A stretch of DNA of 63,999 nucleotides, counting the filler, from Gonapodya sp. JEL0774 (lineage: Eukaryota), in the NCBI GenBank assembly GCA_027604505.1. It is 5 parts of 5 records of this genome, joined end to end, with 100 filler letters (N's around TTAATTAATTAA, not from the genome) between each part and the next. Parts side by side here need not be neighbours in the genome. Positions count along the whole stretch, not along the records: positions 13,782 to 27,456 come from JADIIX010000321.1; 4 more parts are not named here. One strand, given 5' to 3'. Shown here one piece after another: positions 7,690 to 55,053 of the stretch. Position 1 is the first letter of the stretch; each line of letters opens with the position of its first letter. A model generated the notes under the pieces. That model searched no databases. It saw nothing but the letters and a program-made list of their open reading frames with translations, and was not told the origin of the DNA. A program made the translations under genes and the position numbers.

Positions 7690-9860
7690 ACTTACCCGAA
7701 TCCACGATCCGCTCCTCCGACAGAGCTGATTTCTTCCCCCTCACCGAGCTCCCACCTTGTTCCTCTGAGTCAATGTCTCCATCCGAGGCGCCGGCTCCAC
7801 GACGGCGTCTTTTGCTACTAGATTTGGCAGAGGAGGTAGAGGGAGCCTTGCGTTTTGTGGAGGATCTCTTCTGTGATTGTGCGACGGTGTGTGGATGCAC
7901 AGAAGCACCGCGCCAGAGAAGCACCGCGGTGGCGGGAAATGCATGAAAGCATCCCATGCAATTGCACGAGCACAGTTTGCGACGTGAAATGGTTCAGTCC
8001 TGATGGCAACTTCCATCGACAAACAACACACCTGTGACTTCCGAGCCTTACTCTCATACTCGTCGAATTCATCCTCCGTAATCTCTTCATCTTCTTCCCC
8101 CTCCTCTTCGTCGTCCCCTGCATTGTCGTTCCTCCCAGCAGACATGGTGGCAGGTTTCGGCTTGTCGGTTATGATGCGCTTGGTGGAATTATCAATTTTA
8201 CCCTCTGGCGGTTTAGCAGATTTCTCCTCCACGACCTCCTCTTCCATTTCCTCCTCGGATTTTGACTCCTCGTCATCATCATCACTGTCACTACCCTTCT
8301 TCCCTTTCCCCCTGCCCTTGCTTGACCCAGGCTTCCCATTCTTTCCACTAGTTTTTGCCTTCTTCTTTGACGCCTTCTGTAACAATGCCAAATTACTTCA
8401 GCATACTCTTTCCACGAAATTGAGCAGAAAGCTCACCTTCGAATTGCCCCCGCCACCGCGTGCCGAGACTTGCTTTGGAGACTTCAAGAAGTCCCATAGT
8501 CGGTCCATGAGATCTTCTTTGGTGCCAGAGTGTGGGAGCTAGATTGTGCGGGTTCGAGGGAAACAGAGAGATTGTAGAATCAGTTGATCTGAGGAATACA
8601 CGACGTGCATCGCACGATAGGTCGGCCTTCAATCTAAACACCGTCCATGGCAGCGCAAGTTCTATTCTCAGGCGCTCAGTGAACCACACCATAGCCCTTT
8701 GTAGTGCCAAGAAGCCTCCACCACCATGAAGAACCACTCGTGGTGTGTAGCAACTTTCAACCTCGCGGCCACAACTCACCTGCAGTATTCCCGTCAAATC
8801 TTTCAACCCTTCGAGCTTCCACCCTTCCAATTTCTTCTTCCAACGTTTCTCCACCTCACCTCCCTCTTCTGATGCGACTCCTCGCCATGCCCTAATGTGG
8901 GCCTTGACTTCCATGTGCTTCGAGGGAGCATTGTACAGAAGGCGGTGGAGTCCTTGAAGTGTGTCGGATTTTCCAGGGAGCTTGGACAAGGCTGGGTAGG
9001 TGGGATAGTGGAGGAGTTTAGGAGAGATAAGAGCATGCAGGCACTTTTCTCTCCCAAATCGCAAAAAAACTCTGCCCCAGGACCAACGATTCACCGAACG
9101 GGCCGGGGCGGCGCGGGGGGGCGGGGGCGGGGGCGGGGGGGGGCGGGGGGGGGGGCGGCGGGGGCGGGGGGGGGGGGCGGGCGAGCGGAGGCGCGCCGGG
9201 CGGNNNNNNNNNNTGTCATAGACACAGTATCACGTCCTCTACACTCAAGATGGGTAGTGCTCAGTCCAACTCTAGTTCATTCGATTGGCGTAGGAGTCCC
9301 AACCAATACAATCGCCTTGCCCACGCCGTCACTCCAGTCAATTCACCTTCCTTAATCGCATCAATATCTCCCAGTGCCACTCCCCTCCCCTCTGGCGCCG
9401 ACCACAGCTCTTTGCGCTTAGAGGATTCTGTCTCGGCGGCTCTGGCCGCGCTGGTGCTGCTCGCTGCAGGCTTCCGTGCGCGGGAGGAGGTGCGACGGTC
9501 AGGTTGTGCGTCCAGCTACGAAGAGGTGAGGATGAGCTTATGTGTTCGAATTGGTGGGGATCGCGAGGGGATTCCGAGGTGATTCACCTCGTCGGCCGAG
9601 TGTCCATTCATATCACCTTCCTCGTGCTTGGGTTTTATTTCCACAACAATCTTCAGCTCTGACGCCACCAGACCTTCTTCCACGCCCTCATCCTCGGTCT
9701 TTCCATGCTTCCCGTTGACGACAGAGAGGGCAACATTGCGATTCTCGTCAGATTCGAAGGCGCCCGGCAACGAATGAACGGATCCTTCATCCCTGACAGT
9801 TGAGCTTGCTTCGGGAGGAGATATTTCCTTTTCGCCCGAGGGCAAAAGGGTTTCTGTCAT
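7690..9860 (-). CDS. DEK: DEK-like chromatin protein (SAP-like domain), spliced, contains an assembly gap
   Basis: LQGLHRLLY...KAHIRAWRG...KLEGLKDLTGILQ and SGTKEDLMDRLWDFLKSP match the DEK central/SAP region, with acidic and Lys-rich tracts. The 3' boundary is uncertain. Confidence 0.7.
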
Positions 9861-13681: not shown

Positions 13682-13781
13682 NNNNNNNNNNNNNNNNNNN
13701 NNNNNNNNNNNNNNNNNNNNNNNNNTTAATTAATTAANNNNNNNNNNNNNNNNNNNNNNNNNNNNNNNNNNNNNNNNNNNN
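13682..13781. other. Artificial scaffold spacer (N44-TTAATTAATTAA-N44)
   Basis: All-frame stop linker between N runs. The same spacer occurs four times in the window. Confidence 0.97.
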
Positions 13782-14405
13782 TGCTACGCAAACGGGGAGG
13801 GCGTGGCAAAGGACTTTGACGAGGCAGTGAAATGGTGGAGGAAGGCCGCGGACCAGGGTCACGCTCTGGCGCAGTACAACGTCGGCTACTGTCTCCGCTA
13901 CAAAAACATGGAGGCCGGTCTCCGCTACAAAACCATGGAGGCCGTGGCGAAAGACTTTGGAGAGGCAGTGAAATGGTTCAGGAAGGCCGCGGACCAGGGT
14001 GACAAGGAGGCGCAGTTCAGCCTCGGCCACTGCTACGCAAACGGGCAGGGCGTGGCGAAGGACTTTGGAGAGGCAGTGAAATGGTTCAGGAAGGCCGCGG
14101 ACCAGGGTGACAAGCAGGCGCAGTTCAGCCTCGGCCACTGCTACGCAAACGGGCAGGGCGTGGCGAAGGACTTTGGAGAGGCAGTGAAATGGTTCAGGAA
14201 GGCCGCGGACCAGGGTCACGCTCAGGCGCAGTTCAACCTCGGCTACTGCTACGACAACGGGCAGGGCGTGGCAAAGGACTTTGGAGAGGCGGTGAAGTGG
14301 TGGAGGAAGGCCGCGGACCAGGGTCACGCTCAGGCGGTTCGAGCATTGCAGGCTTTCAATAAGAGTGCGAGTGGACCACAGAAGAAGGTTTTTGGATTAT
14401 TTTAG
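13782..14405 (+). CDS. Sel1-like repeat protein, 5'-partial
   Basis: Tandem 36-aa units AQFSLGHCYANGQGVAKDFGEAVKWFRKAADQG, encoded by near-identical 108-bp DNA repeats. Confidence 0.95.
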   Translation, partial: CYANGEGVAKDFDEAVKWWRKAADQGHALAQYNVGYCLRYKNMEAGLRYKTMEAVAKDFGEAVKWFRKAADQGDKEAQFSLGHCYANGQGVAKDFGEAVKWFRKAADQGDKQAQFSLGHCYANGQGVAKDFGEAVKWFRKAADQGHAQAQFNLGYCYDNGQGVAKDFGEAVKWWRKAADQGHAQAVRALQAFNKSASGPQKKVFGLF

Positions 14406-15538
14406 GACATTACTTCAGTCAGAAAATGGTATTGTCAGTTCCGTCAAGGCATAGTGCATGTGTTTTCTCAAGTGCACAGGGAATGGCCATGTTATCACTT
14501 CTTCCAGCCCCTCTTATTGCCTTCTTTCAAATCCATTCTGTATTTTCTCTGTTTCTTCCCCCCACCCCCTTTCCCCCGTGGGGTGTTTCAAGAGGATGAG
14601 TGTAGGACAGGGCTGGAAGGTTCTAGAACACTCTTGACTTCGGCAGATTTTTTTGTATTCCTGGTCAATTGTTGAATGCCAATTTGAATAAATGTCTTGC
14701 CATAAAACTGCAACTCATCAAATTGATTTCAAATCAATCTCAGCCGTGAGCTGGTCTTGATGGAGGACCAACCATGCCGTCTCGCCTTGCAGACCAGCCT
14801 CGCTTCTTGACCGAAGACCGTCACACCACACCAAACTCCAACACCCCACAGGATGGCAGCACGCAAGCACACAGACATGATTGCTGCGGTGGAGGCCGAC
14901 AGTCTCACTCTTGTCGGAAAGGCGTTCGCGGAGGGCCAGGAAGAGGGTCACACTCCCGGTCTGAATCAAGTCTGAAACCAAAAAAGAAACCATCCTCGCC
15001 GAGTCTGCCATCACAATCGCTGTCATCAAAGCGTCGACCGATTCTAGACATCATTGTAGACACGCCTTCAAACAAGTGCACAGGCCACTTAGTGCTTGTT
15101 TGTACGGCATTGCTGTCACTATTGAGCTAGGTGACGAATGGAACTCGGTACTGGAGGGATATCCGATACACATTTTAGAACCTTCAAGGCTCCTCAAACG
15201 GGACCGGTAGAGCTTTGGAACTTTCAAAGCCGTTATGTAAGGGCAATATATATTGCGCCTCGCTAGCTTTAGAGACCATTACGTTGACTCCGTTTTTGCC
15301 GTTTTCGAACTCTCAAAACGGCAGATTTTAGAACCTTCATGGCTCAAGAAAACAATCCTGTGCAGCATGTGACTCCAATTCGGATTGATGTAGAATCAGA
15401 TCGAAAAAACTGATCCCAGAAGTACTTGTGGGTGTTGGATGACCACAGCAGACGTATCTCTTTTTAGCCAGCGTTGATCACCCATCACAGGCTATTTAGG
15501 AGTGTGCACTGGCGGTTCATGAAACTCATCCGTCGTGG

Positions 15539-16246
15539 ATGTATATTTTCTCCATGATTTTACTTTTTTATATTCGAAGAGATGGAGCAATGAATTCGAT
15601 GATGACCTCCGATGCTCTCCCTCCTTATACGGTGGTAGCTTCTGAACCGTCACTCTCGGATTTCACAGTCGCACGACTCTCCGAACACGAAAAGGTTCTG
15701 TACGGCAAGCTGAACAGTATTCGTGAGGAGTCCGAGCCGAGTGGCAGGGAGTATCCGGCGGACTTGGTAGCAATCTTCCCACTGGGTGGATATTGGTCTA
15801 AGGAGCACGCTAAAAAAGCCCTGATAGAGCGCTCGGGCCTGGTAGAAAACATAGATTTCAAGATATACAATCCAACCTCTGAGAATGTCGAGGAAGATAT
15901 GTTTACCACAAGTGAGCGGATTCTTCTAACGTGGCACGCCGCTCAAATCTTTGTGATGCAGGGTCCCACCAAGGTTGGTGAAGAAGTCCGCCGTTTCTTT
16001 GTTCACATACTCCAACTTCACCAAGACTACATCATGTTGCAGGCGGAACGTCGCACTGCCAGCGCGGTTGCCGACGTCCGTCACGAGGAGATCCTTGCCG
16101 CCCATGGTGACGAGCAGGGTGCTTATTTGGGAACCATTGGGTGGCAGAGTGTTGAGAGTCATGACAAGCTCTTCAAGTTTGGGTTCGCAAGCAAATTGAA
16201 GGAGGGAGTCCATCGCCAGTGGAGGGAAGTGTTGCGATGCTTATAA
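15539..16246 (+). pseudogene. Giant-virus-like MSV199/antirepressor-type DNA-binding domain plus truncated T5orf172/GIY-YIG-like domain
   Basis: Intronless. YPADL...GYWSKEHAKKAL...ENIDFKI...ILLT...TKVGEEVRRFF is followed by AYLGTI...LFKFGFASKL and then an early stop. Confidence 0.55.
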
Positions 16247-16635
16247 CAAGGCCAACCGGAAGAAAATACCTTCGGTGTGTAACTTGAAGTTCAAATAAGA
16301 GCCTTGCAAAGCGTTGTGTGTCCGTTGCTCACGCGCAAAGTCAAAGGTGTTGTGGAAATGTCAGCTCCGAGCACCTCTGCGCCACTCTTGAACTCTTTAC
16401 GCATTTTTTCGACGTCGTCGTCCCTGACATCCCGTGGAGCATCGTGGCGGACGACACAGTGACCACCCTCGAGGAAACCGGCTGACGAAGACCGCAGCCG
16501 CTCGTTGAACGCGGCGGGGGAGGGTGCAGAAACCTGGACTTTTTTTTCGCCGACGATGACTCTGCCTTCGCGACAGGTTCGTAGGATGGCGGTTTCGAGC
16601 TCTGCGGTTGACGGATCTCATTGATTCTCTGATTC

Positions 16636-16788
16636 GAGCTAGTCTGTTACGATATCCGGTAGAGGTCTTATGGACATTTTGGACATGACCTTTTTATTTG
16701 GCTCTAAGCTTTGAATCGCTAAGCCCGCAGCTACCACTGCGAGGCCCCTCGAAAAAATGACCAAGGGACCATAATTTATGTTTTTGGT
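16636..16788 (-). ncRNA. Predicted omegaRNA: scaffold about 16788-16656 plus flank-derived guide about 16655-16636
   Basis: Four consecutive hairpins at 16770-16743, 16742-16725, 16725-16700 and 16691-16663. Loop GGUAG (16735-16731) is complementary to CUACC (16662-16658) just before the terminal GG, which allows a pseudoknot. Confidence 0.7.
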
Positions 16789-18618
16789 TCAGTCGTCTTC
16801 TTGGAGTTCAACTTCGTCTTCTCCAGTTGAGACTCCTTGCTTCTTCAAATCTTTGACAACATCACCGAAAAACTTTTTGAGCACCAACCATGAACTCTTG
16901 TCAATTGATCCAGTCCATGTTCTGTATGAACGCAGAAAGATATTTCTTGAAGCGTTATTGTCTCGGTCAGCGATGTAACCACAGGTGCACTTGAAAGTCT
17001 TTCTACTTCCAAGAGTTTTGTGGAGGCGGCCACATTCTCCGCATGTTTTGGACGTGTAGTGTTCTGTCGGGTGAAGAACCCCAACACCTCGTTGTTCTGC
17101 TTTCTGTTTCAACTTTTGTCGGAACTCAAAATGGGCAAGGGTGTACAATTGCCTTACAGTCTTCTTCCTCAAACATCGATGTCCGCAAGATGAAATCTCT
17201 TTCACTTTCAATTCAGGCAGGAGTATGATTCTAGCGTGTTTGGTCAAGAAATTGGCCGTTTTGTTGTGAAGGTCTTCTTTCCAGCGCTGCATTTTCTTGC
17301 GAATATTGGCAATTCTCCTCCTTAATCTACGAAAAGACTGTCTATCTCGATCTCTCTGAGCCTGCCGCCGTTGCGCAATCAGCTTGTCCATGTACAAGGC
17401 CTTTCGAAACATTTTTGTCGACGCATCAGTTCCAATCTGATATGCTTCCTGTTTTCCAGCAAAATATGCGGTTTGGAATGTCCTTATTCCGGGATCCAAA
17501 CTGACAACGTCGTCGTCCATTCCTCGATCGCAATGAGGGTCAATTGGTGCAACGAATGGGGCAATCAGGAAATAATCGAACCCATCAAAATGAACCTTGA
17601 AATCATGATCCATCTTTTCAGGAAGAACGTCAGAAGCCTTCGTGAAGAGTGCCTGTCTCTTGTGAACAGAAGGGTATACTGTAAACGATCTGCTATCACA
17701 GAAATGAAAGTCACGTTTCTCGAAATTGAGAGTGAATGAATGCTTGCTCTGCGAATCAATGGGCTTCATTGTGAAATGCGTGATGTTACGTTGTTGCAAG
17801 TTGGTCATGGCCGATTTGAAATTTTTAGCAGCCTCAAGAACAGCCCCTGATCGAACAGTCTTGGGTGTTTCACACACCCAGCGATGCGCCTGACATACCT
17901 CATGTGGTATTATTTTTGCTTTGAGGGCATACTTGTGTGTAATTTTGTCTTCGTTTATGAGTTTTATCGCCTGGTTGTAACTGAATGTTGCCGCCACATT
18001 CCATTTCTTGAGGAGTGCTCTCATTTGGCTGTTCGGATGTATCTTCATTTTTGTTGCTCTTGTTATTTTTGTACCTCCTTTGAATGTTCCAACGAGAACC
18101 AGAAGCTTGGATGACAGAGAGGATATCTTCGACGAACTGTTGTTGCGCAGGCTTGTTTTCACTGTCGAGAACCACGACTCTTGCACCAAACTGTGCGAAG
18201 ATCCATTCAATGATGTCAAAACCGAATCTTGACAATCTGTCGCGCGAAGCGACCACCACTTCCTGTAATCCTCCTCTCTTCGCGAGTTCCAGAAGGGATA
18301 GTAGTCCAGGTCTTTTGAAGTTGAGTCCTGATCCAATGTCGGCGACAATTCTGTGTCTGGGGAACTTGTCAACCATGAAATCTTGTTGTCGCTGTAGATC
18401 ATCTCTCTGTTTTTGTGTAGATACTCGCACATACGCGACACTTTCCCGATAAGTTCTGGTGACCACAGATTGATTGAGTTTTTGGTGAGATGGGTCAACA
18501 AGGATGCGTCGATCACCTGTTGGCGTTCGGAAGGAGTAAACTTTTGAGGAATCACACCACCGGCGGATAGTTCGAGGAGACACTCCAACATGATGGGCTG
18601 CATCTGATGTGGAGACAT
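16789..18618 (-). CDS. tnpB: Fanzor2 (eukaryotic IS607 TnpB-family) RNA-guided RuvC endonuclease
   Basis: RuvC-I VVSLDPGIRTF. Rearranged RuvC-II, with P at the canonical E position in ILLPELKV and an alternative E in TEHYTSK. Zn finger CGEC..CTC. RuvC-III DRDNNASRNI. Intronless and uninterrupted. The start is 18618 (609 aa) or 18726. Confidence 0.93.
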   Translation of the reverse strand: MSPHQMQPIMLECLLELSAGGVIPQKFTPSERQQVIDASLLTHLTKNSINLWSPELIGKVSRMCEYLHKNREMIYSDNKISWLTSSPDTELSPTLDQDSTSKDLDYYPFWNSRREEDYRKWWSLRATDCQDSVLTSLNGSSHSLVQESWFSTVKTSLRNNSSSKISSLSSKLLVLVGTFKGGTKITRATKMKIHPNSQMRALLKKWNVAATFSYNQAIKLINEDKITHKYALKAKIIPHEVCQAHRWVCETPKTVRSGAVLEAAKNFKSAMTNLQQRNITHFTMKPIDSQSKHSFTLNFEKRDFHFCDSRSFTVYPSVHKRQALFTKASDVLPEKMDHDFKVHFDGFDYFLIAPFVAPIDPHCDRGMDDDVVSLDPGIRTFQTAYFAGKQEAYQIGTDASTKMFRKALYMDKLIAQRRQAQRDRDRQSFRRLRRRIANIRKKMQRWKEDLHNKTANFLTKHARIILLPELKVKEISSCGHRCLRKKTVRQLYTLAHFEFRQKLKQKAEQRGVGVLHPTEHYTSKTCGECGRLHKTLGSRKTFKCTCGYIADRDNNASRNIFLRSYRTWTGSIDKSSWLVLKKFFGDVVKDLKKQGVSTGEDEVELQEDD

Positions 18619-18622
18619 GCAT
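17900..18622 (-). CDS. tnpA: IS607-family TnpA serine transposase (MerR-like HTH plus resolvase domain)
   Basis: HTH AAHHVGVSPRTIRRW...RTPTGDRR, catalytic AYVRVST, DIGSGLNFKRPGL and RDRLSRFGF. Confidence 0.95.
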   Translation of the reverse strand: MHVSTSDAAHHVGVSPRTIRRWCDSSKVYSFRTPTGDRRILVDPSHQKLNQSVVTRTYRESVAYVRVSTQKQRDDLQRQQDFMVDKFPRHRIVADIGSGLNFKRPGLLSLLELAKRGGLQEVVVASRDRLSRFGFDIIEWIFAQFGARVVVLDSENKPAQQQFVEDILSVIQASGSRWNIQRRYKNNKSNKNEDTSEQPNESTPQEMECGGNIQLQPGDKTHKRRQNYTQVCPQSKNNTT

Positions 18623-18767
18623 CTGATACTTTTCTTACATCTACGCTCACAAAAAAAATTTATGTCAAATTTTTGAAGACGTGGACGTGGACTTGGACGT
18701 CGACGTCGACGTACAGTTTTGACCATTTTGACAATAAATGTCCGTGGATTTGAGAAGCAGCTGAACC

Positions 18768-20269
18768 CCCCACTCTCAAATCTCACCAGTCTGTCTTTTT
18801 TGGAACTCTGTAACAACCAGCTCACTGGAGAGATCCCCTCTCTCTCGTCTCTTACCAAGCTTCAACAAATCCACCTCTATAGCAACAACCTATCCGGGAA
18901 TGTGGACAGAGTGTTCATACCCGCGTCCGTATATTATTGCTACCTGTACCCCAATCCCGGCTTGTACAGTTGCACCGGTAACGCTTCGGTTTGCACAAGC
19001 TCCGTTCGCGTCGATGCTGCACCCTGCGCAATCGTTTCACCTTCCTCAGCAACTTCCACAACGTCGTCGAACGGCCCCAACGTCGGCGCCATAGCCGGAG
19101 GGACCGCTGCCGCTGTGGCAGCTGCGGTCATGGTCGTGATTCTTGCATGGCGAGCCCGAAGCACGCGCTACCGAAGCGCACCACAAAAGGACGCGATGCC
19201 GCCGGCGGATAAGGAGGTCATAGGGCCAAATATCAGTGCAAGTGAAGATGGTGCAGCTGAGTCAGAGTTACCGGCACCTATAGTGAGTCATACATAGGAC
19301 ACATGGCTGTAAGCCGCACCTTCAATTCCTCAATCATTTTTCGTTTGTTTTTCTTGGAGACTGCATTTCCTGCTGAGCCGCACACGCCCGATCGCCCTTC
19401 ACCGCTACCCACCTCGGCCAATGACATACCGTCTGATACTGTATTCCTCGCTGACTCAATCGAGGCGTCCACCGCATCATCACCTGCTTCATTACCACTC
19501 TCTTCTGAGTCGAATTCAATTGCAGCACTATTGTACCCATCTGCCAGTTTAGCGGATCTTCCTCAAACCCCCAAGGTGGAGACCGTGGCAATTGTGGGAG
19601 GCACACCACAGGTCGAGGCGCCAGTGCCAACTGCAATACCAGTATTGTCCATTCCCGCAATCCAGAGTAATGTGAGAGTGAGATATCGGGGGTGGAGCAC
19701 AGGCACCGGTGATCTGCATTTTCACCTCGCAAATAGTCTCAGGGACCACATGGGGCCTTTGTTGCCTTGGTCGGCCCAATTTTCGGCGCATCGCCCAGAA
19801 TCGAACTGCCTCCAGACACACCGCCATTCCAGGTAGACTACGAGGTGAGGCAACCCACATGTTATTGATTGCGTTTGACTTTTCCTGATGAACCTTGTTG
19901 GACAGTACAATGCGGTGTCCCCCGACGAGGTGTCGATCCGCAGGGGACAATTTGTCAAGCTCAAGGTCGTGTTCAGGGACGGTTGGGCCATGGGACTCAA
20001 CATTGCCACGGAGCAGTATGGACTTTTGCCTCTGTAGGTACTCCCGTTTGACGCAGCTCCTGCAGTTTCTCTCATGCGCTCCCTGTGCCAACTTAAGGGA
20101 ATGCCTTCGTATGACCCCTTATCAACCTGCATTCACGATACCAAGTGTGAGACTGGAGTCGGTCGGGGCATGGGGCAGCCACGGAATGCCATTATTGCAC
20201 CCCTCTGCTCCACCTCCATCGTCAACAGATGTCGGTACGCCAACGACCGTAGCGTACGGCGCTGCGTAG
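18768..20269 (+). pseudogene. LRR-transmembrane-SH3 receptor-like gene, 5' end cut off at the element junction
   Basis: LRRs LSNLTSLSFLELCNNQLTGEIPSLSSLTKLQQIHLYSNNLSG, TM GAIAGGTAAAVAAAVMVVILAW, and a spliced SH3 YNAVSPDEVSIRRGQFVKLKVVFRDGWAMGLNIATEQYGLLPL. Confidence 0.75.
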
Positions 20270-20464
20270 TCAATTGTAACGTTTTGTCAGGAAGGCGACT
20301 ATCAACAATGTCTTGGAAGTGATTGGCGGTGAAGTTTTCGTCAATCGCGTCGGATGTGAACTGTTAGTTAAAAGTACAACTTGTAAAAATTTTGAAGTTT
20401 CTATAAAGTATTCTGGAAGTTCCAGGCCTTCACATATCGGTTCTGTCCAACCTCATGGCAAAGG

Positions 20465-21415
20465 CTAAAAATGTTTATGGATGCGCAACATATTGTACAG
20501 TGAGAGAAAGTCTTTCTCGTACTCCTTTTTGTACTGCTGCAAGTTGCGCATTGTTCCATGGAAGCGTCTCGGGAATGGTTCATCATGCCAGTACTCCAAC
20601 GGCGCCACTGCCAACAGATTGAGCAACCTTGTAGTAGGATGAGTGAACAGTTGGTAACGAGGTTCTCCGTAGTCCAGTCCGGCAAACGAGCTTGGTACGT
20701 GGTAGAGAAGCAGTGGTACATCGACTGGTCGCGTAAAATTGAACACCATTGCCGCAATCTTCATCACCACGCCGTAGCCCAATGTGGATTCCAACGTCCG
20801 CCATACAAGCTCCTCAACATCCGCCGCTTCCCACACAGGGCTCTCGCCAGCAGCTGGCGTCTTCCAGTATATGTACACATCGGTGGAAAATGGAAAATAT
20901 ATGTGAGGCCAGTCATTTTCGGCCGCTCCAGGATGTCCTTCCTTGTGAATAGTTGCGTCATCCGGTCGGTTATGTGGGGTTCCGAGAGGTTGACCTGGTG
21001 CTGAAGTACTCGTGCGATGCATTTCCCGAGGACGTAGGAACGTTTTCCTCGGGATCCTCCTCCTTGTCGGTGCGCTGTCCCATAGGTTCCGTAGTTCTCG
21101 CCCATCAGTAAGAGTCAAGACGTGACCAGACTTCATCACGTTGAATCCATGCTGGTCGTCGGGCAGATGATGAACTACACCTGCAGTATCGACTGGAATG
21201 ATGGTCACGTCGATGGGAACACGGCCTCTGATCAAGAACGTGGCGTCGGTGAGTCTCGCAAAGCGGCGACATGTTCTTCGGAGTTCCTTGTTCCACCAGA
21301 CACGCTGATAATAGTCGAGATTCGGCATATTTCGCAGAAGAATGGCTAATACCTGCAACCACACGTCGTCCGGCAGTTCAGGGATGACAGAGTTTGGACA
21401 AGATTGTTCGCGCAC
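20465..21415 (-). CDS. F-box-like protein, apparently intronless
   Basis: N-terminal IPELPDDVWLQVLAIL...ELRRTCRRFARL in a 316-aa ORF. Confidence 0.55.
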   Translation of the reverse strand: MREQSCPNSVIPELPDDVWLQVLAILLRNMPNLDYYQRVWWNKELRRTCRRFARLTDATFLIRGRVPIDVTIIPVDTAGVVHHLPDDQHGFNVMKSGHVLTLTDGRELRNLWDSAPTRRRIPRKTFLRPREMHRTSTSAPGQPLGTPHNRPDDATIHKEGHPGAAENDWPHIYFPFSTDVYIYWKTPAAGESPVWEAADVEELVWRTLESTLGYGVVMKIAAMVFNFTRPVDVPLLLYHVPSSFAGLDYGEPRYQLFTHPTTRLLNLLAVAPLEYWHDEPFPRRFHGTMRNLQQYKKEYEKDFLSLYNMLRIHKHF

Positions 21416-22385
21416 CAGGCCACACGCTGTGGTATGTGGTGGTAATGGACGGAGGACGGGAGTAGAATGTCGTTTCCTGGGGCTGTGTCCAGAGACGGAG
21501 GTGGATAGAGGTTTCTACAAGCAACCGATTGCGGTCGTTTCAGTTACACGTAGAAAGAGATATTAAGTACGCTCTTCTCACCTTGCAACGCCGATACGGT
21601 TGAGTCCGCGTTCGCTTTTGTTCGATCTCGATGGACGGCGGACGAGAACGTTTTTTCGACTCCGGAACGGTGGTGTGCGACTGGGTCCGCATTCGCATGC
21701 GTTTTAGTTCGATGGTATGGTGGTTATCAGAAGGTGAAAGAGATTGGTTCTTCGCATTCGTGACCTCATGTGTGTTTGGCTGAATGACCGATGTCGTGTC
21801 CAAATGGCTAAGAGAGGGATGGTGACGAGAAACTGTACTCACCTTGCTTCGGCGGTCCGGCCGAGTTCGTCGACTGTGTTCAACTGCGCAGGAACCGGGC
21901 AACTGAGAGTGGGGTGCATTTGGCACGTTGTGAACGGAGACGGAAGAAGCAGGAGCGTCGACATGGACTGGGACTGATATTGACGCAGTGGGTTTTGTGG
22001 GAGATCGACCAGGTCTCTCCCTTTGGTGGGTGGGACGAGAGTATGGTTTCTCTCGAGTGCCGGGTGTGTTGTTCCGCTTTGGGAGTTTGGAACAGACAGT
22101 TGAAACGGCGGTGATGGCTCGTGTGATGATGTCCTTCCCAGCGTCGAGTGCTTTGCGGGCGCCAGCGTAGTTGATTCGAGCCATGTGTGTAGGTGTGTCT
22201 GTGTGGAGGATGCCGAAATGTTGTTCTTGGAGGGATTGCGCAAGTGAGGCTGTGTGAGGCTCCCGCGGATTAACCGCTAAAATTCCGCGGTCGAACACAG
22301 AGTAATCCTGCTCCAGCGGGTAATACAATGTCAGAGGGCAGAGGAGCAAACGCCGAGTGGGTGATCGAGATCCTGTGTTCTGTTC

Positions 22386-23863
22386 ATGACTCACAACTGC
22401 CTCCCGCCTGAAGAGCTGGCTTACCGGACGAACTTACCAAAGCTCTTCGAAAACATGCGAGAAATTCTTTTCTTGAAAGCGGACTTGCAATCGCGGAAGA
22501 TTTCTGTGCTCAAAACGCTAGTGCTGCTGCCGTACAACGAGAAGTTGTTGAGAAAAAGCTCGACGAAATAGTGAAGTCCATAATTGGAGATATCAAGAAC
22601 GGCGACATTGCTGCCGTCGGCTTGAGAATACTAGAAAGTCTGCGTCGTTACTATCCTCGACAGCATGTCGTGTGTAAGCTGTGGGTTATACCATTATCAA
22701 AACCGTTTACAGTTTCACTTCATGCATTCATCCACTATGTCATTGCAGAGCTCTGAACAGAATTCTTGTGGACGCCACGGAGGAGGGCGCAAAACATCCA
22801 CTGACCCAGGTCGGAATTTTTCTTGCGCGAGTCAGGGTTTTGAGGGAGATCCGGCGCGTTCAGTCTGAGCCACAGCCACACGAGAGAGCTGTTATTCGGT
22901 TCGGAGTGACTCTATACAGGACCCAGGGGGTGGGTTTTCCGACTGCCCAGCAGATTGGTCTTTCAGATGAAGATTTCGATTCGAAGTGCGAGGACATACA
23001 TATCATACTCCTTCAAGTCGCCATGTTGTGGGTTTACAATCTCCATCATTGATGCATTGTAGAGTATTGACGTTTTTGTCCTATTTTTCAGGACCAAACT
23101 GATGGGGAACGGTACTCTCACAGCGCAGAACGTGCACCATTCGGAGGCAAAAGCTTTGAAGCTGTGGGACACGTTGATTGATCTAGCGCATCGGTCCGGG
23201 GATCATACTGTTGTGCGCAACAACCAGGTTTCAGTGGATGGTATGCATGGGCGAGAACGGGGCGATGCAACGTGGACAACGACACTTGGGGATCGGAATG
23301 GCGAGATTGTGCATGCATCAACTGCTACTGGAGAAACCAAGTCTGGGCGGAGCATAAGGTCGGATTTCCGAAAGGTTGTGTATTTCATGGCTGAAGCACT
23401 CTGACACCTTGAGGACAATATGCCTGTGGAGGCACGGTTGTACTTGGAGACACATGGGATGCTCACTCGCGGTGCCACAGCAACGCCTTCCGTGTGTCAC
23501 TTTCTAGACGATAGGAGCGACATTGTGATGGTATCAAGACTGTGTGAGCCTGTCACAATTGAGGTCAGGCGCGACGTAGATCCTGAGGATTTGTTCGATG
23601 GCGTGGCGATGGTCAATGCGCTTGCGCGTCATATGGCTGTGTGTCATGAAGATCTTGTCACAAGGTTCTCTGTGGTTGTTGATGGGGCAGCACCATCATC
23701 AGGGGATGAGGTGGAGGGTGGTCCAGTGGCTGAAGTGGAAGCACATTCATCAAAGAGATCGCGGATTGCACTACCAAGTTCAGCTGCTCCAGCGGAAGGG
23801 CCTCAGGCTGCCAGACGGACATCGTCGAGACTCAAGAGGTATGTAAGAGATGGCCTGGTGTGA
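22386..23863 (+). pseudogene. Degenerate gene, possibly PD-(D/E)xK restriction-endonuclease-fold (Crinkler-type)
   Basis: Consecutive ORF fragments separated by in-frame stops (22570, about 23402). RGDATW...ATGETKS...SDFRKV resembles a D..ExK motif. Confidence 0.3.
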
Positions 23864-26505
23864 GAGCGGCTCTTTTGACACTGGCATGTCCTTACAGGTC
23901 CACAGAGAACATTTTCAAGCAATGAGAGATATGGGAGAGATGGCAAGTAAAATATGAGGTGATTGAACTGCCCTTATGAGTGTATATTTATATTACCTTG
24001 GTATGTATATACTTATGATATATCTTGATCAATCACGATTTCACCAAATAGCTGATCAATCACTCTATGGTCTCCATCACCATGAACTGACAGGTTAGTC
24101 AGCTAACTATCTCTCCATACAATCTCTCCAACTTGTCAATAATGTCTCACGACGCTGTGTAATAAGTGCACATGTAAGAGCCTATATATTTCTTGTGGTC
24201 AAGTCGATCCTGCTATCCGTATGAAAACTCCCCATTTCTCATACCCCTGTTCGAATGTTGTATAGAACATCATGATGTGCGCAATAATGAGATGGAAAGT
24301 GGGTCTACCAGTGTGATATAAACAACTCACGTATCGATGCAAAGAAACGGTGGATCTCAGTGTATCAGGCTGGGGATCTAATGGCCGTGCCAAGCGGAGC
24401 CAGGTGTTGTGCCTATTTTCGAATCGAGTCTGTCCTGAGTATATTGGCGTTTTACAGTCTCGCGCGTGTTCATACTCGATAGCACATGTCCACCAACCCA
24501 CTGCCATCTCTACTGTGGGTCCGTCAGATGGAATCCAATTCAAAAAAACAATAATCTCAATCAACGTCTTCATCTATAACTGCATCAGAGGCCTCTGTCG
24601 AGGTCGGTGATCCTGCCCCATACTTGATGGTTTCAGGAGACAGGAATTCACCTGGAAATGTTGGGAGAAACGGGGCTGCACCAAATCCACGCAACCGTTT
24701 GTTCGCAAGGCGCAACTGCTCGGTGTTGTGTTGATTCCTTCAAAAATGAACAGTTACGGTATACAAACATGAACACACAAGATAAAAAAAAACACTTTAC
24801 TTACATAATTGTAGCTTCAGATGCCTTCCGGATTGCACCAAAGTATAGCGAGCGCCAGTGGCGAAGGCGATTACGAAGACTGGTGGCTGGTGGCGACGCT
24901 TCACGTTCCTCCGACAACTCCTGGAGGAGGGCACCTTTCAATTCGTTGAACTCATCACGAGCGTCCTTGTACCCCTTTTGAAGCAAAGTCCAGTTTACAC
25001 AATCTCCATCTTGCAACCTCGAGATAACACGTTGTTTCTCATGGAGCTCCTTGGTCTTCTCCTGCAAGAGTACTGCTTGCCGTTCAGAAAGTTCTCGCAA
25101 GCGGACAACTTCGGGTTGAACATCCAATCGTTTCTGTAGGACACTCAAAACAGATGTCGCAAAAGCATCGACGTCTGATTGAACATTTTCTTCTGGTGGA
25201 TCATCATATGCTGTTGCAACAGTTGATGGTTGAATGCGATTGCGTTTTTCAAGGTTGATAGGTGGACCTCCGTTGCTCCTGCTGACATTGGTTCCCTTGT
25301 TCCGCTCTTGTTTACCAAGACGATCTGCAAAATGAAAAGACGGTGAGCGAAAGTATAAACCCTGCACATAGAGCGATGATGAAATCCCAATTGGGATTTC
25401 AACGCTCTCCATTCCAAGTGCTCCCATACGAGAACACCAACGGAAAAGCGCATCTGCATTTGATGGATTACGCCACAAGAACCACGTCTCTCACAATGCG
25501 AATGGGATGAACCACACACATTGATCGATCGATTTACGTTCTGCAGAACACGTCTCTCACAATGCAAAGGCACGGGGGGTTCCACGTTCCAGAGCGCAGC
25601 CATTTGCATTGATCGATCGATTTACAACTGCGGTCAACGTCGCATGCAGATGTCATCGCGCACAAGTGAGGAGCGACATGCGCCCATAGGTTTCCCCATG
25701 CAAAGCACAATGCACACACACATCCGCTCAATCACCGTGCTTAAAATACAAAGGCTGGAAACTGTTTCTCCGCCTTCCTTGCTCACCTGATTTTGTTTTT
25801 CGTGGGACATCCGCCTCGCGCCCCGGCGACAAGTCCCGATAAGGCATACTGGTCATTCTTCGTAATTGTTTCTGCAAAGCGAAGGCACATTGTAAAAACA
25901 ATTACGAAGAATGAGCAGGAGAATGCTCAAGACACACCGCGACATGTGTTCCCGCGGAACACTATCGGGAGACAACGTACGTCATTTCCATCCATTGGAG
26001 CTTTTGGCATCTCTTCAATTGTTGTGTCAGCGGCGACAGTGTTAGAAAGTGTGTTTTTCTCGATGGGTCGATGCGGGCAAGGTGCGGTTTGGCCGACATA
26101 AGGGAGTCAATGTGGGTAGCAGCATCAGCACAGGGGGCAGCAGATCAAGCAGGTCTAAAGACGATGTTTCTGCTGCGATATCATCAGCAACGGTTGAAAC
26201 ACCACGTCCGTGATGACACATTCTACCGAGTAAGTTGGTCGCGTCCGACAGAAGACCCACTCTCCTTCCAGATCCGGAAAGCGAGCGCCACTGTATTCAC
26301 CTTTGTAAAAACCTTTGAGAAGACTCCAGGCGCGATGCTGATAGAAGGGAAGTCATCGCTTGAGGGGAGATAAACTTTTTATTGCCAGCACGACCATCTG
26401 TGGCGGTGCAGTTGCGTAGCCCCTGTGCCACACCCAGGATGGTCAGGGCAAATAAGTTTGCAAGGACTACAAATATATATTGACTATTCCATTGTTCGCC
26501 CTTGC

Positions 26506-27246
26506 TTAAAATTGCCTTCCGAATTGCTTACTGATGCTGTATTGCTTGTGATGCTCAAGCGGAATTCCTATCATCCGCTGAACACGGGTCTCGAGAGTTC
26601 TATCAACGGGAAACTCGTGTTTCAGAGGGTCACAATAAACTCCCTCGGACCTGCTCATGAAAGGGATGATGACTATCCTTGGGACATGAGCCTTTTTGCG
26701 TCCATCAATCTTTGGCATGTCGTTGGAACACGTGAACATTTTCGCAGTGTTCTCGACTTCACGCATCTCTTTGAAGAGCTCACGCGTCTGAAGACGGTCA
26801 CTACCACTGAGCCGCTTTAGTGGCTCCTCGTTGATTCTTGCGCCATCCTGAACTTCCGACATATAGGCAAACCGCCTGTTCACCATCATGGTGAGCTGCG
26901 GAGTGGCCGCATTGGCGTCGCCAGACTTCCCACATATCAGAGCAGAGTTCACAGAAACCCCGTATTTCCCTTGTGTCTGGTCCATGATTTTCATGAGCAC
27001 TCGACTAACCCACCCCTCGACATCGTCAATATCCAGGACAATGATTCCAGACGCAGAGTCAGTCTGAATGGCGATAGCGGTTCTGAGAGGAAAGGTCTTG
27101 GCTGCTTCGACGTCGAGATTCTGCCATCCCTTTGGCGCCGGCGCCTGCAGCTCCTTGCTCTCGCGCTCTACATTCCAAGCGAGCGAGATAGGGAAGGCAA
27201 TCCAGCCTAGTTCCAAGTACTTTGCGAGTTGCTCCTGTTTCGTCAT
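26506..27246 (-). pseudogene. Internally deleted viral-type PrimPol plus D5/SF3 helicase
   Basis: N-terminal bifunctional primase-polymerase motifs (YLELGWIAFPI, PKGWQ, IAIQT..SGIIVLDID) join directly to the D5 helicase part (RRFAYMSEV...KRLSGSDRLQTRELF...SNDMPKID...RIVIIPF). Walker A is absent. Confidence 0.8.
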
Positions 27247-27312
27247 GATTGGTTGGAAAAACGAACAGAAAACACAAAGTTTGAGTAGGTCGTGGAATAT
27301 AGTGGAAGAATC

Positions 27313-27456
27313 GATGGATGGGATGAGGATGGGACGATAATTCTGTAAAATTTTCGAATATTCTCTCAGGATGGGATGAGAGATTCTGTAAACTTTTCGA
27401 AACTTTGTTCGGGATGGGGATGAGGATGGGATGAGAGATTCTGTAAACTTTTCGAA
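27313..27456. repeat. Three copies of GGATGGGATGAGAGATTCTGTAAACTTTTCGAA-like units
   Basis: Direct repeats upstream of the PrimPol-D5 ORF that run into the scaffold end. Confidence 0.85.
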
Positions 27457-27556
27457 NNNNNNNNNNNNNNNNNNNNNNNNNNNNNNNNNNNNNNNNNNNN
27501 TTAATTAATTAANNNNNNNNNNNNNNNNNNNNNNNNNNNNNNNNNNNNNNNNNNNN
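27457..27556. other. Artificial scaffold spacer
   Basis: N run, TTAATTAATTAA, N run. Confidence 0.97.
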
Positions 27557-41213: not shown

Positions 41214-41313
41214 NNNNNNNNNNNNNNNNNNNNNNNNNNNNNNNNNNNNNNNNNNNNTTAATTAATTAANNNNNNNNNNNNNNNNNNNNNNNNNNNNNNN
41301 NNNNNNNNNNNNN
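41214..41313. other. Artificial scaffold spacer
   Basis: N run, TTAATTAATTAA, N run. Confidence 0.97.
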
Positions 41314-54953: not shown

Positions 54954-55053
54954 NNNNNNNNNNNNNNNNNNNNNNNNNNNNNNNNNNNNNNNNNNNNTTA
55001 ATTAATTAANNNNNNNNNNNNNNNNNNNNNNNNNNNNNNNNNNNNNNNNNNNN
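54954..55053. other. Artificial scaffold spacer
   Basis: N run, TTAATTAATTAA, N run. Confidence 0.97.

Follow-up and report, generated by a model that had tools for sequence, protein, structure and literature searches.

A predicted guide-RNA scaffold with a terminal pseudoknot at the right end of a Fanzor2-type IS607 transposon in Gonapodya sp. JEL0774

The window analyzed here is a 63,999-nt stretch of DNA from Gonapodya sp. JEL0774 (GCA_027604505.1), in which positions 13,782 to 27,456 come from JADIIX010000321.1. On the minus strand of this part lie tnpA, which encodes an IS607-type serine recombinase, and, downstream of it on the same strand, tnpB, which encodes a nuclease; this gene order was common to 26 related loci. 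Judged from its sequence, the element is an IS607-type transposon that looks intact and resides in a eukaryote-like genome with few genes. The host was treated as eukaryote-like because the 64-kb window is gene-poor, with 11 open reading frames (ORFs) of at least 250 aa. Between the tnpB stop codon and the right end, the strand that carries both genes holds a structured region. By analogy with related elements, this folded right end is predicted to be the guide-RNA scaffold of a Fanzor2 transposon, and we place the probability of this interpretation at roughly three in four. The two genes and the parts of the predicted scaffold are given below.

16789..18048, minus strand: TnpB/Fanzor2 core ORF, 419 aa plus stop, counted from the Met of MKIHPNSQ
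17900..18622, minus strand: tnpA, IS607-type serine recombinase, 240 aa plus stop, with an N-terminal helix-turn-helix (HTH)
16743..16770, minus strand: hairpin 1 (SL1), 10 bp, G+C-rich, with a U-rich loop; arms 16770-16761 and 16752-16743
16726..16741, minus strand: hairpin 2 (SL2), arms 16741-16736 and 16731-16726, loop GGUA
16700..16725, minus strand: hairpin 3 (SL3), bulged, arms 16725-16718 and 16709-16700
16663..16691, minus strand: hairpin 4 (SL4), weak 5-bp stem (16691-16687 with 16667-16663) plus inner pairs, with repeats in the loop
16735-16731, minus strand: predicted 5' strand of the pseudoknot, GGUAG, from the apical loop GGUA(G) of hairpin 2
16658..16662, minus strand: predicted 3' strand of the pseudoknot, CUACC, the exact complement of 16735-16731
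16656..16657, minus strand: GG, predicted IS607 crossover core and last two scaffold nt, at the right end of the element
16636..16655, minus strand: predicted native guide ATATCGTAACAGACTAGCTC, the first 20 nt of the right flank, placed from the GG rule and from relatives

The nuclease core, whose stop codon TGA occupies 16791-16789 of the minus strand, matched Pfam PF07282 (E 4.3e-18) and, more weakly, PF01385 (E 8.3e-4, under the cut-off of PF01385). The mimivirus Fanzor2 (PDB 9B0L) was the top solved match by sequence (E 1.4e-27) and was also first by profile (E 4.3e-49) and by the fold of the AlphaFold nuclease model (E 4.5e-24, TM 0.69, the template modeling score), with 8IAZ, the IS607 TnpB of ISFba1, in second place in the fold search. 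According to the relevant passages of PMC10711439, Fanzor proteins are separated from ordinary TnpB by DPG at RuvC1 and by a Glu six residues before the first CxxC. Both features were present in the nuclease. RuvC1 reads LDPGIRT, with D411 in the numbering of the long form described below, and the alternative RuvC2 Glu is E555 (E555-HYTSKT-CGEC), six residues ahead of the first CxxC. The catalytic D, E and D were invariant in 44 aligned sequences; E555 was invariant in the same set, and the canonical Glu position 505 was variable. The four Cys of a C4 zinc finger are followed by an RD motif (DRD). The literal search pattern quoted from PMC10711439 (CxxC...CxxC) misses the nuclease because its second Cys pair is spaced CxC, and a pattern permitting CxC matches. 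This pair consists of Cys580 and Cys582 in the long form (16846-16854, minus strand), and the same spacing was seen in the aligned protein P0011. These comparisons support the assignment of the nuclease as a TnpB of the Fanzor2/IS607 kind, with Fanzor2 and IS607 TnpB proteins as its closest relatives.

The initial annotation had described four minus-strand stems past the TnpB stop codon, and reading of the sequence together with folding located all four where they had been placed. SL1-3 were in the minimum free energy (MFE) structure of every folded construct. Their pair probabilities were 0.95-0.99 for hairpin 1 (-15.7 kcal/mol folded alone), 0.97-1.0 for hairpin 2 and 0.86-1.0 for hairpin 3 (-8.6 kcal/mol folded alone). 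SL4 appeared in the MFE structure once the RNA ended at 16656, with pair probabilities of 0.82-0.92 compared to at least 0.86 for SL1-3. For hairpin 2, the annotated stem and loop were retained except for the extra U:G pair, as the first pair of SL3 competes with it. The region folded better than shuffled sequences, with z-scores of -2.5 (3 of 200 shuffles as good) and -3.0 (1 of 200). An Rfam search of 16000-19500 (E up to 10) returned four matches, all with E of at least 2.9 and none at 16636-16788, and no match to RAGATH-18 was among them.

The loop sequence GGUAG was read as the exact complement of the CUACC that precedes the GG, as had been annotated, and the energy of this duplex was -4.8 kcal/mol. 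The GG behind CUACC lacks a partner, apart from a possible G:U. A loop 5-mer complementary to a downstream 5-mer followed by GG arose in 8 of 2000 dinucleotide-preserving shuffles of 16788-16630, where any hairpin loop 5-mer with a stem of at least 5 bp was counted. In the real 16788-16630, GGUAG/CUACC was the sole loop/5-mer match, whatever dinucleotide follows. This result bears on the possibility that the pairing is coincidental and that the true scaffold consists of hairpins 1-3 only or reaches into the ORF, with the tertiary contact elsewhere. The pairing is just 5 bp long, the general enrichment of a loop match plus GG in relatives was weak, and omega RNAs often begin inside the ORF, where extra stems were predicted here as well. 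Against coincidence stand the shuffle frequency, the matching loops found for 7 of 16 terminal motifs in relatives (p 2.7e-4) and the position of the 5-mer directly before GG, as in ISXfa1 and ApmFz2. Coincidence thus appears quite unlikely.

Related loci (L numbers) were collected in two scans, which gave at least 160 loci with nuclease relatives and at least 53 with a tnpA-like match. In the metagenome scan, the relatives were 24-58% identical over their best segments, among the matches listed. The loop/tail pair reads GCUAU/AUAGC-GG in L033 and L021, GCUAG/CUAGC-GG in L093, GCUAC/GUAGC-GG in L124 and L039, and GGUAG/CUACC-GG in L010, which has the same letters as the window. The terminal heptamer CUACCGG of the window was identical in L010 and L076, and the terminus fits the N-UA-[GC]-C-GG form of L021, L033, L039, L093, L096 and L124. 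Hairpin 2 has analogues in the hairpins that bear the loop in L033, L093 and L096. Compared to the GCUAN form, pair 2 is changed from C:G to G:C in the window and L010, and pair 5 varies among G:C, C:G and U:A. The differences among these loop/tail pairs amount to compensatory changes. Furthermore, 7 of 16 N-TA[GC]CGG motifs in the 3' flanks of relatives had a complementary 5-mer between stop-30 and stop+110, against 1.45 partners expected from same-composition permuted 5-mers (binomial p as given above). This count did not presuppose pairing, and three near-duplicate loci were left out of it.

The giant-virus family of L096 and L098 showed the same arrangement. A hairpin directly after the stop codon carries the loop GCUAC, complementary to the GUAGC before the terminal GG. 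Among six right ends, four of them distinct, the stem of this loop-bearing hairpin contained 3 compensatory pairs, and the 5 loop/tail pairs were invariant.

The recurrence of the complementarity is also informative for an explanation in which the boundary is right and the structure acts at the DNA level only, as TnpA sites or the transposon end, or serves as a transcription stop of the nuclease mRNA, so that no functional guide RNA is made, for example in a silent copy. The repeat motifs of hairpin 4, which are like those of the left end, and the single copy of the element in the window would agree with this explanation. It is disfavored because DNA binding alone does not predict complementarity between loop and 5-mer that recurs by GG with compensatory changes in relatives. 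In addition, both ORFs are intact with all catalytic residues present, and the published IS607 TnpB and Fanzor2 systems use such an RNA, as described in parts of PMC10711439 and PMC11832414. We therefore regard a structure without a guide-RNA role as unlikely.

The scaffold had been annotated to end at 16656 and the guide to start at 16655. Both the GG rule and the copies of relatives, which diverge directly after GG, support this placement by analogy, and we consider it probable that the scaffold ends at 16656 and that the guide begins at 16655. L096 and L098, from two giant-virus bins (G002 and G003), were 96.6% identical over 1750 bp, and the identity stopped exactly after ...GUAGCGG. When the L096-type right end was searched in both bins, 11 matches were obtained, of which 10 finish in ...TAGTAGCGG followed by ten unrelated flanks. 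A single palindromic solo end in L168 supplies two of these ten ends as its arms, and the remaining match, L172, is without the terminus.

The solo right end in L168 (~1490-1535, bin G002) is palindromic and resembles a miniature inverted-repeat transposable element. Its AT-rich hairpin has as arms the final ~17 nt of the right end (…CTAGTAGCGG) and the reverse complement of these nt, and each arm carries the ...TAGCGG terminus.

A second GG, at 16690-16689, offers another possible end of the element and scaffold. The guide would then start with UCAUGUCC..., hairpin 4 and CUACC would belong to the host flank, and the pseudoknot would join the U-run in the loop of hairpin 1 to the A-run before that GG. 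The U-rich loop and the A-run are both present, and AAAAAGGTCA (16695-16686) resembles the left-end AAAATGGTCA (18729-18720), with 9 of 10 positions matching. However, the duplex between U-loop and A-run was unfavorable (+1.0 kcal/mol), and GGUAG/CUACC reached -4.8 kcal/mol. The N-UA-[GC]-C-GG terminus seen in relatives is matched by CUACCGG and not by AAAAAGG. An end here would exclude from the element the 9-nt repeats that correspond to the left-end motifs, and its left-end counterpart, the GG at 18724-18723, would cut through the start codon (ATG) of the long ORF. Direct similarity of the left and right ends did not exceed chance either (76 of 300 shuffles), and the boundary is thus very unlikely to lie at this second GG.

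Several results weigh against a scaffold that ends with the pseudoknot and GG at 16656. The boundary of this element was set by analogy with relatives, and similarity between its left and right ends within the window was not above chance in either direct (76 of 300 shuffles) or inverted orientation (30 of 300). Hairpin 4 is weak; it was missing from the fold when the flank was included and was not conserved among relatives. Scaffold homologues at the sequence level were not detected in 161 loci by blastn-short or nhmmer. The proteins nearest to the nuclease among 5.8 billion searched were only 38% identical to it. P0001, one of the group at this identity (P0001-P0007), was not found in viral contigs.

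Among the relatives, 9 of the 16 N-TA[GC]CGG motifs had no partner. A permissive pseudoknot scan of 144 loci, which was noisy, gave no enrichment of GG (ratio 0.98). The strict scan for a loop 5-mer plus GG found 8 cases in 39 relatives against 3.8 expected (2.1-fold), and GG was not distinguishable in it from CG (2.5-fold) or GC (2.1-fold). The motif TA[GC]CGG occurred in 19 of 159 loci, where ~14 were expected, and in 6 of 45 full-length relatives; therefore most relatives use other termini, or the scan misses them. The position of the 5' partner also differed, at stop+11 to +24 in six relatives, at stop+92 in L039 and at stop+54 in the window, where it lies behind an additional hairpin. Finally, no GG was seen at the left end of the L096 family, and this family therefore does not help in placing the left end of the window's element.

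The left ends L173, L174 and L175 of the L096 family are alike only from CTGTTTTAA on, with no GG ahead of it. Copies of this family are without tnpA, and left ends lacking GG are odd for an IS607-type crossover, all right ends stopping at GG. No further copies of L093 were found in its own record.

Weighing these points together, we favor the following mechanism. The minus-strand segment 16788-16656 would be the right end of the element and would be transcribed as the omegaRNA/reRNA (right-end element RNA) scaffold for the adjacent upstream Fanzor2-like TnpB. GGUAG and CUACC would form a pseudoknot that sits against the nuclease, and the GG at 16657-16656 would serve both as the recombination core and as the last dinucleotide of the scaffold. 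The RNA would continue into the flank, where ~16-20 nt from 16655 (ATATCGTAAC...) may act as the guide. After excision, the nuclease would cut the empty site, which consists of left flank, GG and right flank, and re-copying of the element would be favored. The repeats in hairpin 4 would likely double as TnpA-binding sites on the DNA.

The transposase gene is consistent with the IS607 type. TnpA matched the Pfam Resolvase family PF00239 at residues 62-191 (E 9.3e-20), and MerR/HTH matches were found at residues 2-39 (E 3.1e-4, under the curated cut-offs). Identity to the tnpA of related loci was 30-44%. A second copy of the element was not found within the 64-kb window. Parts of PMC6188088 report that the termini and targets of IS607 elements carry GG, and that IS1535 has short direct repeats 10-28 bp from its right end. 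The left end was tentatively placed as follows.

18742..18743, minus strand: tentative left-end GG and candidate crossover core, with the ATG of the long ORF 16 nt downstream

The motifs TGTCAAAA/TGGTCAAAA (18733-18717) begin 9 nt inside this candidate GG. At the right end, the repeats TGTCCAAAA/TGTCCATAA (16685-16668) form an adjacent 9-nt pair that ends 10 nt before GG and mirrors the left end. The tandem repeat motif TGKYC(C)AWAA was defined post hoc, after both ends had been seen, and the likeness of left and right repeats is only suggestive for this reason. As a regular expression, it matched 19 sites across both strands of the window, including 4 at the two ends. The 9-nt repeats in hairpin 4 are, from their sequence, likely candidates for TnpA-binding motifs on DNA.

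The element lies antisense to, and adjoins or falls inside, a receptor-like ORF with leucine-rich repeats (LRRs) and a transmembrane segment, which was read on the plus strand at 18719-19297 and again at 16397-16655. This host ORF matched LRR_4 (E 2.8e-6). The element may have interrupted this LRR-like host gene. When the ORF was read by eye over two candidate excision joints, both stayed open for a few codons, which was uninformative.

The nuclease ORF continues in frame upstream of the core, and tnpA lies wholly inside the long nuclease ORF in another frame (17900-18726, minus strand).

18049..18726, minus strand: in-frame N-terminal extension of the nuclease ORF, 226 aa from the ATG at 18726; the long form has 645 aa

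Residues 6-16 of the extension read RRRRRPSPRPR, a basic run like a nuclear localization signal (NLS; 18679-18711, minus strand), and the DNA under this run is a series of GTCSAC hexamers near the left end. The extension could be aligned with those at the N-terminus of P0002, P0016, P0004, P0007 and further proteins, and the motifs YPFW and SWF(S/T) were common to the extensions of homologues. In an AlphaFold 2 model of the long nuclease, built with 44 sequences, the mean predicted local distance difference test (pLDDT) score was 70.8 and the predicted TM score (pTM) was 0.65. The model predicted disorder for residues 1-141 and placed a helix at 148-156 and a beta-hairpin at 176-193, with pLDDT values of 65-76; the nuclease core was mostly above 85.

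The reading frames were then compared over the span of tnpA in 26 loci including the window. The nuclease frame had a mean of 1.08 stops and was stop-free in 13 of 26 loci, and the third frame had a mean of 15.4 stops and was stop-free in none. The offset between the tnpA and nuclease frames was constant across the 26 loci, and the loci with tnpA inside a long nuclease ORF include L005, L007, L011, L037, L085 and L090. In a codon alignment of 17 loci, pairwise identity was 41.7% in the tnpA frame, 25.9% in the nuclease frame and 23.1% in the third frame; the corresponding values for the C-terminal half of the alignment were 39.8%, 29.5% and 23.8%. From these frame comparisons, the overlap of tnpA and nuclease looks like conserved dual coding.

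Whether the transposase and the RNA-guided nuclease are interlocked is, in our estimate, evenly balanced. In such an arrangement, the N-terminal domain of the nuclease would be coded inside tnpA, conserved from metagenomic and giant-virus loci to the window, and the last hairpin of the guide RNA would double as a transposase site. If this is true, overlapping protein/protein codes would be combined with overlapping RNA/DNA codes, and loss or change of either gene would damage the other. No paper linking Fanzor or TnpB with overprinting or overlapping genes was found in a literature search that covered neither supplements nor gene maps, so such a link may be known implicitly. The word "overlap" is absent from the text of PMC10711439 and PMC11832414. 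This apparent conserved overlap of two coding frames could prove more interesting than the scaffold.

The locus is a well-supported new example of the published guide-RNA design of IS607 TnpB/Fanzor2 and adds no new principle; the biological surprise is small because the principle has already been published. What it provides is a concrete boundary between scaffold and guide for an apparently intact Fanzor2-type nuclease that has an N-terminal NLS-like motif and belongs to a eukaryote-like genome. Compact genome editors are sought among systems of this kind. GGUAG/CUACC would represent a natural compensatory variant of the GCUAN/N'UAGC form and supports the published pseudoknot rule. The variants of the pseudoknot suggest pairs of scaffold and nuclease that may be orthogonal.

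Elsewhere in the window, tandem 108-nt repeats encoding Sel1-like units (KDFGEAVKWFRKAADQG) were observed at 13782-14405, in an ORF that enters an N block. The N blocks at 13682-13781, 27457-27556, 41214-41313 and 54954-55053 share one layout of 44 N, 12 bases and 44 N and lie ~13.75 kb apart. Runs of 10 N were seen at 9204 and 48210. These runs and blocks resemble marks of masking or scaffolding and not biology.

Among known systems, ISFba1 (8IAZ) resembles the window as an IS607 element with TnpB. Its reRNA is reported to be derived from RAGATH-18 (PMC11061315), and the two differ in that no RAGATH-18 match was obtained by Rfam in window positions 16000-19500. The TnpB omegaRNA of ISDra2 (IS200/IS605), as far as it is covered in parts of PMC10711439 and PMC11832414, shares with the window a guide-adjacent pseudoknot as the core of the scaffold. 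Unlike the window, ISDra2 is a Y1-transposase element, and its scaffold ends at the transposon boundary with no fixed flanking nt.

The giant-virus L096/L098 family has a nuclease 29% identical to that of the window and copies that diverge directly after GG. Like the window, it combines a loop 5-mer complementary to the 5-mer before GG with a further hairpin just before that 5-mer. It differs in having no tnpA, 86 nt from stop to GG, the letters GCUAC/GUAGC and a left end without GG.

ISXfa1 of Xylella fastidiosa, compared here by its description in parts of PMC10711439, is like the window in its tnpA(Ser)-tnpB order, several stem-loops, a pseudoknot by the guide and a GG crossover. Recombination of IS607 elements between GG dinucleotides is described in that paper, and the flanking G is counted in the ISXfa1 scaffold. 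The ISXfa1 RNA begins in the 3' part of tnpB and extends over the right end, as proposed for the window. Its pseudoknot, formed by an apical loop and 5 nt by the guide, was required according to mutation and partial rescue. The differences are that ISXfa1 is bacterial and that three stem-loops were reported for it, against four predicted in the window. As for the target-adjacent motif (TAM), ISXfa1 depletes GGG, and the left flank in the window reads ...C before the candidate GG.

The same pseudoknot was predicted in Fanzor2 in PMC10711439, and passages of PMC11832414 and PMC10711439 describe Fanzor1 without it. The initial annotation had attributed a pseudoknot with the last scaffold nucleotides to TnpB and Fanzor guide RNAs in general. 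This holds for TnpB and Fanzor2, and the statement has to be narrowed to "TnpB and Fanzor2" because Fanzor1 lacks the pseudoknot.

The closest solved system is ApmFz2 of Acanthamoeba polyphaga mimivirus (9B0L), which is cited here from parts of PMC11832414 and PMC10530073. It shares with the window the IS607 context, a pseudoknot formed from the last scaffold nt and an N-terminal extension with an NLS (NLS-like in the window) ahead of the TnpB core. Its nuclease was 22% identical to that of the window by fold alignment. According to PMC11832414, the structured N-terminal domain of ApmFz2 contacts the pseudoknot; in a profile search, the extension in the window was not alignable with this domain, the alignment reaching only ApmFz2 residue 121. 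The ApmFz2 scaffold has 205 nt, and its 5' partner lies near the 5' end of the RNA, unlike in the window. In the structure, the pseudoknot uses nt -4 to 0, with the pairs G(-192):C(-2) and C(-191):G(-3) given in PMC11832414. By our comparison, these pairs fit a ...GC-GG terminus like that of the relatives, and in the window the end is ...CC-GG and the loop differs correspondingly.

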